DNA of 61,845 bases, counting the filler, from Basidiobolus ranarum (taxonomy: Eukaryota): NCBI GenBank assembly GCA_040143965.1. It is 11 parts of 11 records of this genome, joined end to end, with 100 filler letters (N's around TTAATTAATTAA, not from the genome) between each part and the next. Parts side by side here need not be neighbours in the genome. Positions count along the whole stretch, not along the records: positions 33,830 to 39,363 come from JASJQH010001565.1; 10 more parts are not named here. One strand, written 5' to 3'. This document shows positions 34,369 to 37,807 of the stretch, piece by piece. Positions within the stretch are counted from its first letter, which is position 1, and the number at the start of each line of letters is the position of its first letter. A program made the position numbers and the translations under genes. The notes beneath the pieces were generated by a model that had not been told where the DNA came from, searched no databases, and saw nothing but the letters and a program-made list of their open reading frames with translations.

Positions 34369-34641
34369 TCAAGGCTTGTTAGAGCGTAATGGGCTCCATA
34401 ACTCATCCTGAAGATGAGTGTAAGCAGTGGAGGGAGTTGTTCCGTGTTTGAACTCTGAACTGACATTACCACTAAACTCTTCCTCAACGGAAGAGCTTGA
34501 CTTCAAGGCCTGTTTAACTTGTTGGTTCCTTTTCATGATCGCTATTGCAGCAATAGGGTCGACGTATTCTCCCTGTCTAGCAAGACGGCTAGATTGATTC
34601 ACCATCTGACGTGAAGATCTTAAGACGGAGGAGGAAAACAT
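34369..34641 (-). CDS. Small protein, paralog A of a three-gene family (90 aa)
   Basis: Full-length similarity to 35872-36162 and 37532-37807 (ARQGE.VDP.AA.A.MK, EE.FSG.VS, GT.PST, DELWSPLRSNK). TATA-like site about 50 nt upstream. Confidence 0.85.
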   Translation of the reverse strand: MFSSSVLRSSRQMVNQSSRLARQGEYVDPIAAIAIMKRNQQVKQALKSSSSVEEEFSGNVSSEFKHGTTPSTAYTHLQDELWSPLRSNKP

Positions 34642-35871
34642 AGTAGCAGAGATTTATTAAGCTCATTTCTGAAAGGATCTGGGGAGGGTACTTATAACTT
34701 TCGAGTGATGTTCAAGTGACTATCAGTCAGAGGCTTAAATGGAAGCCATCACAGCTCTCAGAGCTAACGGCAAAGCACACTACTGGTCACCCCTAATGAA
34801 AAAGACTAGCATTGCCAATTGGGTTGTACGATATTTTGTGGACATCAGGCCGTTTTAGATTGTGATTGACATTTCACTCACTTATCTGATAAGCGAAGGT
34901 CTTCACCTGATGTCCACCTTGTTAAACTAACGAATAGACGGCATATGTCTCAATAAATGGAATCCGACTTCTGGATGGGCCTACTTCGGTAGATTACTGT
35001 GATTCCAATTATGGAGCAAGGCTGTGCTTTATTGAACAAACGTGAGCCATGATAGTGACTTCTATTTTAGTCTATTGATGGTGGAGATAATGAAGGCTGC
35101 TGAGGGGTGCATGTTTGGCTCATCTATGTAGAGCCAATCTTCAAGTGACCTTTATCGCTGAATCACTCGCATGTGACTAACACAGTTTATGCTATTTCCT
35201 TTTTGGGCACAACCTTCGTGATGACGCATCGTACTCTTGCCCTCAATTTACGGTTGTTGTGACTTGCAGCCTTTTCTCAGAAGCAAGTGAAAATAGGGCG
35301 CTTGCCTCGTCAAACCACCTACCCTAATAATTGTATGATTCACTTGTGAAGAGGCTCCAGATGATAAATGGTTTCATTTGCTGTTTAATTCCTGTGGTTC
35401 ATTAGAACTCTAACAAACCAGGCCAACTGGATCTACGATGCATTCCAGTCCAGCGTCTCAACCACCAACTGCAAACGCATACATTTCTGGCCACCAAGAT
35501 GAGTAATCTACCTCCTAATAGTCCACGTCTGCGGACATCATCAGCATATATCTATAAAGTAAAACACATGAAACGTCCTTGAATGCTAGCCCGCAACCAA
35601 TAATCGGAATGTTCTGCCGCATACATGAGTTTTAAATATCTAATGAAAAGGGACAATTATATGCTGATAGTATTAGGTTTTTTTATTGAACGAGATCCAG
35701 GTACAAAGAATAATAATCACAGTGTGTATAATATATAATACACAAAACTAGGAGGGTGCTTGTGTGCCTCTGGAGAAGGATAGTCGAATGTGCAACTGGC
35801 ATGTGCTGGCACATCCGTGATGGTTTCAACTCACGCTTTAGGGGAGGTCACTTGGAAAGTAGTACACGAGC

Positions 35872-36162
35872 TTACGGTTTGTTGGAGCGTAAAGGGCTCC
35901 ATAATTCGTCTTTGGGATCAGCAGAAGTGGTTGATGGAGCGGTGCCGCTTTTAATTTGCGAGCTAACATTACCGCTAAATTTCTCTTCAGCAGATACACG
36001 CTTCGCATCTTCAGCACCCTTCTTGAGTGTCTCTTTAACTTTCTGATTTTTCTTCATCACTGCGACGGCGGCATTAGGATCGATATGCTCACCTTGACGA
36101 GCGATGTGGTTAGCGTGATTAGCAACTTGGCGAGAAGAGCGTAAAATAGAAGACCTGAACAT
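35872..36162 (-). CDS. Small protein, paralog B of a three-gene family (96 aa)
   Basis: Same conserved blocks as paralogs A and C. CTATAAAA about 50 nt upstream. Confidence 0.85.
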   Translation of the reverse strand: MFRSSILRSSRQVANHANHIARQGEHIDPNAAVAVMKKNQKVKETLKKGAEDAKRVSAEEKFSGNVSSQIKSGTAPSTTSADPKDELWSPLRSNKP

Positions 36163-37531
36163 TTCGATACTATTAGAGAATGATTTCCAGAGGAGGGATC
36201 TTAATTCCTTTTATAGTGGTTGACACGAATATGGCTATGCATAGAATACGCTACCAGTCATATCAACTTATTACATCATCTCATTGAGATTCGGCTCTCA
36301 GTGAGGTAACTATTCTACTGTGTATCACATGAGCTTTTTTGGGATTTAGTTGATGTAGAGATTGTACCAAGTACCAGACATTGAATGTGTAAGAATACAA
36401 GATATTAGATGAGCTTATGGGCAGGGCTGCGCTCTGGATAAACATGGAAAACTTTATGTAATACCACCATTGATGTTATCAATGAAATTGAGAAACAGCC
36501 CTTTCCACCCATATACAAACAGTGGATACATGTCATGTGTTATATATCATGTGTAAGCACACTACATGTGACAAGAAACTAAGGAAATCACTAAAGACAT
36601 GTATACTTGTGAAGTATGATTCTACCATCATTTCTATTAACATTTCAATGTTTTACATCCATAACCGAATTGGATTTCTAAACGCCTTGAACGGTTGCAG
36701 GGGTCACTAAAGTGAACATTTTCCCACACTCGGGTATTTGTGTTACGTGAAAGAAGATCGTTTATCCAAATTCTTAAGGCTACTAAACAGGTACGATTCC
36801 AAAATTACTAACAAATACCACTTGTTGCCCTTGTAGCTTCTAGAAAGATCAGCTTTACCAATCTATGTTATCAATCCTAAACTGGTTTCTTTGATATATT
36901 AAACAGCAATTGATAATTGGTATCCCATAGATAAATTTGGATGATATATATGGTATTTCACATATGCTTTGGTGTTTTAAGAAGTTGCTGATATTTTAAC
37001 TGTGGTGCCGTAGTAAGTGGATCTTTCTCTGCCTGCGTCATCGGAGAAGTACTGCTCAAAATGAATTTGATTAATACAAAGTCTTGGCCCATCGTGTGGT
37101 AAGTCAAAAAAAGCAGTCCCCTGTACGGTTTGATAAAACAAGGGAGATATAATCACATGGGCAATTTATTCTATTCACGTAAGGATATATTAGGCGCATT
37201 TCATTGTATTCTGAAGAAATCTGAATATACTGTCAAACTCACAGCATGACAGCTTAGCCACTCTAAACACTGAAAGCTGTAACAACAAACTACATAACTT
37301 AGGAACATCATGATACTACGGAGATAGCACTGGTATTGCTCCTAGAATGAGATAATCCTGGTTTAAATCGAACAGAAGAAAGTATAAGTACGGCATACAA
37401 CCCATCGCTGGACTGCACTCCGCTCTCTCAATCACAGGAACTAACACCAGCCACTCAAGCTCTGCCTTAGCTTCAATCACAATCACAACCACAACCACAA
37501 CACTTATACCTACATCTACATAAGCACAGCC

Positions 37532-37807
37532 ATGATCGGATCCTTCATTACACGCGCCTCCCGTCAAGTTGCGAACCATGCTGGACGGATCGCAAGACAA
37601 GGAGAGCACGTCGATCCCAAGGCAGCAGTAGCAATGATGAAGAAGACCCAACATATCACAAAGTCCCTCAGAGTAGGAGGCGGCTCCACCGAAGAAAGGT
37701 TCAGCGGTGAGGTGAGTGCGCAGATCAGGCGAGGAACATCGCCATCTACCGCCTCAGCCAACCCTAAGGATGAGATGTGGAGCCCTCTGCGTTCCAACAA
37801 GCTATGA
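37532..37807 (+). CDS. Small protein, paralog C of a three-gene family (91 aa)
   Basis: Same conserved blocks, oriented divergently from paralog B. TATAAGTA at ~37383 and a C/A-rich 5' leader. Confidence 0.85.
   Translation: MIGSFITRASRQVANHAGRIARQGEHVDPKAAVAMMKKTQHITKSLRVGGGSTEERFSGEVSAQIRRGTSPSTASANPKDEMWSPLRSNKL

Follow-up and report, generated by a model that had tools for sequence, protein, structure and literature searches.

Three kinds of described proteins come closest to the subject of this report, a family of small proteins encoded by the genes A, B and C of the early-diverging fungus Basidiobolus ranarum (GenBank assembly GCA_040143965.1). The plant LEA3/LEA5 proteins (PF03242) have in common with them a length of about 90-100 residues, a presequence-like start, a variable middle and a C-terminal tryptophan motif. 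There is no sequence match, however, and Trp1, Pro3, Thr7 and Gly8 as well as the RRGYA4 and DAELR elements of LEA3 are missing from the family. The IF1/STF1 proteins (IATP, PF04568) are likewise small and helical with a presequence-like start, yet neither the IATP domain nor the inhibitory pattern was matched in the Basidiobolus family. Finally, Cue5 and NIPSNAP1/2 are comparable by a W-x-P-L near a disordered C-terminus and by a presequence with a possible link to Atg8. In contrast to these, the family proteins are without a CUE or NIPSNAP domain (Pfam), and their link to Atg8 is putative.

The genes are located in a stretch of 61,845 nucleotides, here called the window, in which short contigs are strung together with spacers of N. 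The locus occupies one contig of 5,534 bp (window 33830-39363, G000:C1565). Basidiobolus inhabits amphibian and reptile guts and moves between leaf litter and the guts of animals. Judged by title, a literature search returned no paper on these Basidiobolus genes, and none of the papers matching WSPLR dealt with fungi. The family is undescribed but of a known kind: small proteins restricted to one lineage, which combine a likely presequence with a short conserved motif. Our tentative interpretation is that the products would be imported, mostly disordered, basic microproteins restricted to Basidiobolus, regulated by stress and acting through two short motifs.

Three gene types in two clusters

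Genes A (34369..34641, minus strand, 90 residues), B (35872..36162, minus strand, 96 residues) and C (37532..37807, plus strand, 91 residues) are intronless open reading frames (ORFs) from ATG to stop. The original prediction of three intronless paralogues on one contig, two on the minus and one on the plus strand, is in agreement with this arrangement. Protein identity was 63% between B and A, 66% between B and C and 53% between A and C, and comparisons with one another gave E-values of 1e-25 to 1e-31. Analysis by the method of Nei and Gojobori yielded proportions of synonymous (pS) and non-synonymous (pN) differences of 0.91 and 0.19 for A and B, 0.88 and 0.19 for B and C, and 0.73 and 0.27 for A and C. 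The corresponding rate ratio dN/dS for A and C was 0.13; because dS is saturated, such values are approximate. Across all seven family pairs pS was 0.73-0.91 and pN 0.07-0.29, and for the six pairs subjected to bootstrapping the upper limit of pN/pS did not exceed 0.51. The flanks of A, B and C did not align with one another in blastn except for one inverted repeat. As the synonymous sites are near saturation and the replacement sites are not, we concluded that A, B and C are old, selected coding genes; that they are real genes is practically certain. The ratios below 1 and the diverged flanks agree with the old duplication under purifying selection that had been proposed.

The proteins of A, B and C are already present in NCBI/UniRef as gene products and the genes are thus already called, not overlooked ones. 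Antisense ORFs at 35801-36046 (+), 37564-37836 (-) and 37316-37654 (-) were taken as shadows, because gene A has no comparable antisense ATG ORF of at least 50 residues.

Searches of the same genome with A, B or C returned identical sets of six matches, which correspond to the window genes and to two further genes, A2 and B2, on contig C8868 (G000:C8868). A2 is an A-type gene with 73% identity to A, and order and orientation of A2 and B2 are those of A and B in the window. B2 (L007:3537-3826, minus strand) has a 1-nt deletion in a run of A, so that the public model K7432_015230 (117 residues) ends in a wrong-frame C-terminus; the family tail continues in another frame and is still under selection. 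Both parts of B2 show strong selection against B (pS 0.74, pN 0.07). Because selection acts on both parts, the missing base reflects either an error of sequencing or a break that arose very recently; the former, in a homopolymer, is likely.

The protein databases contained seven members of the family: the three window proteins, two more from B. ranarum and two from B. meristosporus. The two additional B. ranarum entries, the hypothetical proteins K7432_015229 and K7432_015230, are those of A2 and B2. In B. meristosporus CBS 931.73 the members are K493DRAFT_320033 (ORX84979.1), which is of B type and 89% identical to B, and K493DRAFT_320032 (ORX84978.1), which is of C type and 55% identical to B. 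Consecutive locus tags indicate that these B- and C-type genes are adjacent; the family motifs are kept and all relatives are unnamed. An A-type protein of B. meristosporus was not returned by searches of a 5.8-billion set. A tree of the seven rows joined A and A2 as sisters with a support of 100/100 and C and K493DRAFT_320032 with 99/99, while the B group was without resolution. There are three old types, A, B and C, and two clusters in this assembly, and by the tree groupings the B and C types appear to be older than the split of B. ranarum and B. meristosporus.

A kinase gene with a Pkinase match and a PVTSLRE motif, which we take to be CDK11-like, adjoins A2 (L007:784-2220, plus strand). 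It gave one match at E 1e-20, i.e. it is single copy, and for the gene next to C, too, no close second copy turned up among the 13,754 contigs of the assembly. An earlier study suggested a duplication of genes or of the genome in B. ranarum (PMC3281927). As an origin of the second cluster a whole-genome duplication is unsupported, since no close duplicates of the neighbouring genes are present in this assembly, fragmented as it is. The two clusters could be parts of one array.

The inverted repeat mentioned above has one arm of 72 bp upstream of C (37298..37369, plus strand), which ends 163 bp before the ATG. The second arm of 72 bp (33830..33901, minus strand) is made up of the first 72 bases at the left end of the contig. 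The arms are identical at 66/72 positions, the last 42 bp being exact up to the contig end, and the two arms were the only matches of this DNA in the whole genome. An inverted copy of the C promoter at a contig end suggests that a recent, inverted, C-like fourth copy lies immediately beyond this end and interrupted the assembly. Thus, the arm at 33830..33901 is probably the promoter of such a presumed fourth copy that was left unassembled.

In every search run the family is confined to Basidiobolus, and the anticipated spread across early-diverging fungi was not observed. Pfam gave no match near any cut-off (best E 0.021) and PDB sequences gave none at E up to 10. A profile search of 1.84 billion representatives found two matches, both of them family members from Basidiobolus. 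From the 5.8-billion set, covered for lengths of 49-168 only, 7/7 and 7/748 candidates were kept, which were the known seven Basidiobolus members. No family member was among 293 candidates from metagenome contigs, 88 from bacterial and archaeal genomes and 84 from viral contigs. The tail pattern had no match in metagenomes, and Rfam had none on the two cluster contigs (C1565 and C8868). Nearest by language-model features were unnamed proteins of Ascomycota with 120-129 residues (ESM Atlas clusters), yet their scores of 0.82-0.84 are below the bar of 0.9, shuffled proteins reach 0.8 one third of the time, and there was neither a Pfam nor a hidden Markov model (HMM) match. No entry of the ESM Atlas exceeded 0.9, and none of its named clusters was usable. 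Pfam, PDB and profile searches thus bear out the earlier statement that no known family is recognizable. The profile was built on six close sequences and may therefore overlook remote relatives of so short and disordered a protein.

A bacterial origin by horizontal gene transfer is not supported, as profile, prokaryote and viral searches found no prokaryotic or viral homologue. Because 36% of the native Basidiobolus genes are given as intronless (PMC7466969), the absence of introns is weak evidence for such a transfer.

Presequence-like start and conserved tail

Residues 1-24 are free of Asp and Glu in 7/7 copies, though 14 of the 24 columns vary. In all seven copies they include 3-4 Arg, have a net charge of +3 to +5 and show an 11-residue hydrophobic moment of 0.60-0.78. 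The N-terminus is therefore Arg-rich, hydroxylated, acid-free and amphipathic throughout the family, as is typical of mitochondrial presequences. Acid-free N-termini with at least three Arg amounted to 2/48 in a rough background. R22-Q23-G24 is invariant in all copies. By the R-2 cleavage rule for presequences, residues 1-23 are plausibly a presequence that would be cut after R22-Q23. The presequence-like start claimed in the original prediction is thus common to all copies, and we consider it likely that the family proteins are mitochondrial.

A signal peptide and a membrane segment are absent, because the proteins are without a hydrophobic segment (best 19-residue Kyte-Doolittle mean 0.37 or lower in 7/7). 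Peptide precursors, which had been considered earlier, are as secreted products not supported by this. The intact copies contain no Cys.

AlphaFold2 modelling of B on the six-row alignment gave a single helix of residues 29-59 with a mean pLDDT of 58.8 and a pTM of 0.24, the remainder being of low confidence. Invariant columns amounted to 10/24 in the N-terminus, 9/22 in the helix block, 6/36 in the linker and 7/14 in the tail. As judged from the alignment, this patchy conservation is the pattern of motif-bearing disordered proteins. The six intact proteins are hydrophilic with a grand average of hydropathy (GRAVY) of -0.51 to -0.92; the pI is 9.6-11.2 and the Gly content 3.3-8.8%.

The tail had been described as an invariant DE(L/M)WSPLRSNK. 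This form is present in A, B, C and both B. meristosporus proteins, i.e. in 5/7 copies, whereas A2 has EELWSPLRPNK and B2 has DEMWSPLRSSK. The core common to 7/7 copies is E-[LM]-W-S-P-L-R-x-x-K. Hence the invariance is limited to this shorter pattern, while the C-terminal Trp is conserved in every copy. The C-terminal -NKL of C, for which a peroxisomal retargeting had been proposed, was found in this copy only (1/7) and deviates from the consensus [SAC]-[KRH]-[LM] of the peroxisomal targeting signal 1. A2 ends with -NKI and the B. meristosporus orthologue of C with -NKP. Because -NKL is absent from this orthologue, a peroxisomal role has little support.

Upstream regions and neighbouring frames

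Each gene is preceded by a TATA-like box as had been predicted. The box of A, TATAAG at -55 (34691..34696, minus strand), is kept in A2, and that of B, TATAAAA at -53 (36209..36215, minus strand), is matched in B2. In C the box is TATAAG at -149 (37383..37388, plus strand) in a context nearly that of A's, AAAG[T]TATAAGTAC. The leader of C also carries a short (CACAA[CT]) run (37470-37511), which encodes a His-Asn repeat in an open frame before the ATG.

About 80 bp upstream of A is a 16-bp element, TAGTCACTTGAACATC (34707..34722, minus strand), which contains GTCAC and the E-box CACTTG. It is identical in A and A2 despite saturated synonymous sites. The upstream region of A (34642..35300, minus strand) has 6 GTCAC sites in 659 bp, three of them as GTCACNTG, and the divergent intergenic region of B and C (36163..37531) has two in the B half and none in the C half. 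We compared the five upstream regions (2,965 bp) with 88.6 kb of ORF-masked background for 512 classes of 5-mers. GTCAC was at the top of the 512 classes with 15 observed versus 3.9 expected sites (p 1.6e-5; Bonferroni bar 9.8e-5). None of 500 dinucleotide shuffles reached 15 sites (mean 5.4), and among 336 background tiles of 600 bp one had 4 sites and none had more. Besides the six sites of A, there were 5 upstream of B2 (530 bp), 2 each upstream of B and A2, and 0 upstream of C. At six of the sites the E-box form GTCACNTG is complete. STRE (6 versus 2.8), CRE (3 versus 0.8), HSE (0 versus 3.2) and CCAAT elements were not convincingly enriched in the upstream regions. GTCAC is the retrograde R box of yeast Rtg1-Rtg3 (PMC3354551). 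The enrichment points to a factor of bHLH (basic helix-loop-helix) type, not to a named one.

On the contig of the cluster, the stretch 38781-39239 (+) was read as exon 1 of a gene for a protein with a C2H2-type zinc finger; it had one exact and two partial matches in the genome and no Pfam match at the cut-off. This exon, which we take to resemble VMS1/ANKZF1, probably belongs to an unrelated neighbour of the cluster. Elsewhere in the window, two long frames of 454 and 362 residues (28431-30897, minus strand) combine a hydrophobic hairpin with an extended helical region and a C-terminus rich in beta structure; they had no Pfam match at the cut-off and may resemble parts of helical pore-forming or Tc-like toxins. 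An intronless frame of 807 residues at 7091-9514 (-) was without a Pfam match. A Gly-rich protein with an apparent signal peptide is cut by a contig end at 5591-6067 (-). At 59201-60433 (+) a frame of 410 residues for a multi-pass membrane protein looks like a G protein-coupled receptor by eye and gave no Pfam match at the cut-off.

Mode of action and alternatives

According to the proposed mechanism, residues 1-23 would be removed in mitochondria, leaving a matrix peptide of 65-72 residues. It would act in a non-enzymatic manner, the short helix DPxAAxAxMKxxQ and the tail E-[LM]-W-S-P-L-R, separated by a variable linker, docking on a partner protein. From the distribution of the conserved blocks we consider this part of the mechanism, two motifs and a partner, fairly probable. 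The A and B types may be switched on by a bHLH factor via GTCAC/GTCACNTG sites, possibly under retrograde or starvation control, and the C type would be regulated by another cue. Stress or retrograde control appears possible from the upstream sites, and we propose it with reserve.

A number of observations weigh against this interpretation. GTCAC was spotted by eye before it was assayed, and the promoter windows were chosen by us. A and A2 have one GTCAC site in common by descent, ACATG likewise passes the bar (21 versus 7.7), and C is without a GTCAC site upstream. With respect to import, acid-free N-termini were found in 9/48 of the background, which was small and crude, and the N-terminus with 10/24 invariant columns is as conserved as the helix block and more conserved than a generic presequence needs to be.

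The latter point would fit proteins which reside in the cytosol or the nucleus, basic and disordered, and are controlled by phosphorylation. In that case S-P-L-R would be a CDK-type site, and R-x-S-R-Q and A-R-Q-G in the N-terminus would be functional motifs instead of an import signal. SPLR fits the CDK-type consensus [ST]-P-x-[RK] in 7/7 copies, and the background frequency of such sites is 0.76 per 1000 residues. The well-conserved N-terminal block and the pI speak for this alternative, too. On the other hand, a presequence would predict both the amphipathic moment and the exclusion of acids from 24 residues, which is seen in 7/7 copies even though 14 columns vary, and a phosphorylation site by itself leaves the invariant Trp and Glu unexplained. 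Thus we consider phosphorylation-controlled proteins unlikely.

Next, the proteins might protect the mitochondrion in bulk, in the manner of LEA proteins, when resting spores or faecal cells dry out. They would then shield membranes or enzymes with no specific partner and would have converged on plant LEA3/LEA5. Plant LEA5 has reportedly been connected with organelle translation in one study. Plant LEA3 proteins consist of a presequence, a variable middle and a C-terminal Trp motif, with Trp1 being conserved to 100% in the W-motif (PMC7410210). The Basidiobolus proteins have a similar layout, and D-P-K-D-E-x-W-S-P of the B- and C-type copies is spaced as D4, P5, the aromatic residue 10 and P12 of the W-motif. 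They are also hydrophilic, intronless and multi-copy. In detail, D4, P5, W10 and P12 are present in B and both B. meristosporus proteins, C has N-P, and A and A2 are without D-P. P3, T7 and G8 are present in none, and Trp1 is replaced by Thr, Ser, Val or Tyr. The Pfam HMM of the family (LEA_3a, PF03242) matched none of six members at E up to 10, and a search of the whole genome with it, run without a positive control, yielded nothing. Hydrophilins are defined by a Gly content above 6% and a mean hydrophilicity above 1.0; by their Gly content and a GRAVY above -1 none of the intact proteins belongs to them. The strict invariance of the short motifs furthermore suggests a partner. Taken together, the LEA likeness proposed in the original prediction does not amount to membership in LEA3, and we regard a role as bulk protectant as rather improbable.

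The same tail could act as an Atg8-interacting motif (AIM). Import-sensing Atg8 adaptors would be silent when imported; upon import failure they would stay at the surface, where W-S-P-L would tag the organelle for mitophagy. W-x-x-L with two acids before it, [DE]E[LM]WSPL, is present in 7/7 copies and agrees with the AIM pattern, in which [WFY]-x-x-[LIV] follows upstream acids and is part of a disordered region, here a low-confidence coil of the AlphaFold2 model. Of 182 background Trp one had L, I or V at +3 plus at least two acids before it, and one was a WxPL. We know of no mitophagy receptor in this fungal lineage; Atg8 itself is present in the genome. In S. cerevisiae and K. phaffii, Cue5 has W-Q-P-L as its AIM (PMC8774080), so that Pro is tolerated there in an AIM. 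A precedent is provided by NIPSNAP1/2, matrix proteins described to act on the mitochondrial surface after depolarisation (PMC12220710). Yet W-x-x-[LIV] occurs by chance at 41/182 background Trp (23%), and an AIM would account neither for the invariant Arg and Lys that follow the core nor for the N-terminal helix. The extended xLIR pattern was matched in 0/7 copies, and an anchor that would hold the protein on the outer membrane is missing. A complex prediction with B residues 61-96 and Atg8 of Mycotypha africana as a stand-in, the first 30 residues of which are identical to exons of the B. ranarum genome with 94% identity over the long exon, scored 0.02 in 2/2 runs; as the method is unvalidated on peptides and controls were not folded, this is no evidence either way. 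We thus give Atg8 adaptors a slight chance. Somewhat smaller still is the chance of the specific variant of a minimal, 90-residue import-sensing mitophagy tag, which by analogy would combine the presequence, a Cue5-type AIM (acid-acid-x-W-S-P-L) and R-box-rich promoters active when mitochondria fail. If the tail does bind Atg8 and is exposed on failed import, this would be a novel, very compact design of mitochondrial quality control, in which one microprotein couples the loss of import to the recruitment of Atg8.

An IF1/STF1-like inhibitor of the F1Fo ATP synthase, also suggested in the original prediction, would agree with the size, the presequence-like start, the single helix and a faint echo of E-E-x-F (columns 59-62). 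However, no member matched IATP, the inhibitory pattern GG-F..R..A.E..YF is absent, and the genome has a separate IF1-like fragment with this pattern at the start of another contig (L036:3-137, plus strand; G000:C3620; IATP E 0.00038, 21.3 bits, below the cut-off of 25). Membership in the IF1 family is therefore very improbable.

A host-directed kinin mimic is exceedingly improbable: WSPLR, which is invariant in 7/7 copies with a chance of 2.7e-7 per site, equals the last five residues of the fish and frog [Arg0,Trp5,Leu8]-bradykinin RRPPGWSPLR (PMC4379535, PMC3835742), but a signal peptide is absent, the N-terminal half listed as needed for activity (PMC4379535) has no counterpart, the residues before WSPLR are acidic, and the likeness was found after the fact via a text search over millions of papers, so that the chance figure overstates the match. 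As both a signal peptide and the rest of the kinin are missing, we take the likeness as a coincidence.

Thus we favor, tentatively, the view that the proteins of A, B and C are imported into mitochondria and act through the helix and the tail. The invariant tail peptide, the candidate import signal and the common promoter element provide handles for experiments. If true, this would add a lineage-specific mitochondrial microprotein regulator to the biology of an isolated early-diverging fungus, which would be a modest advance.

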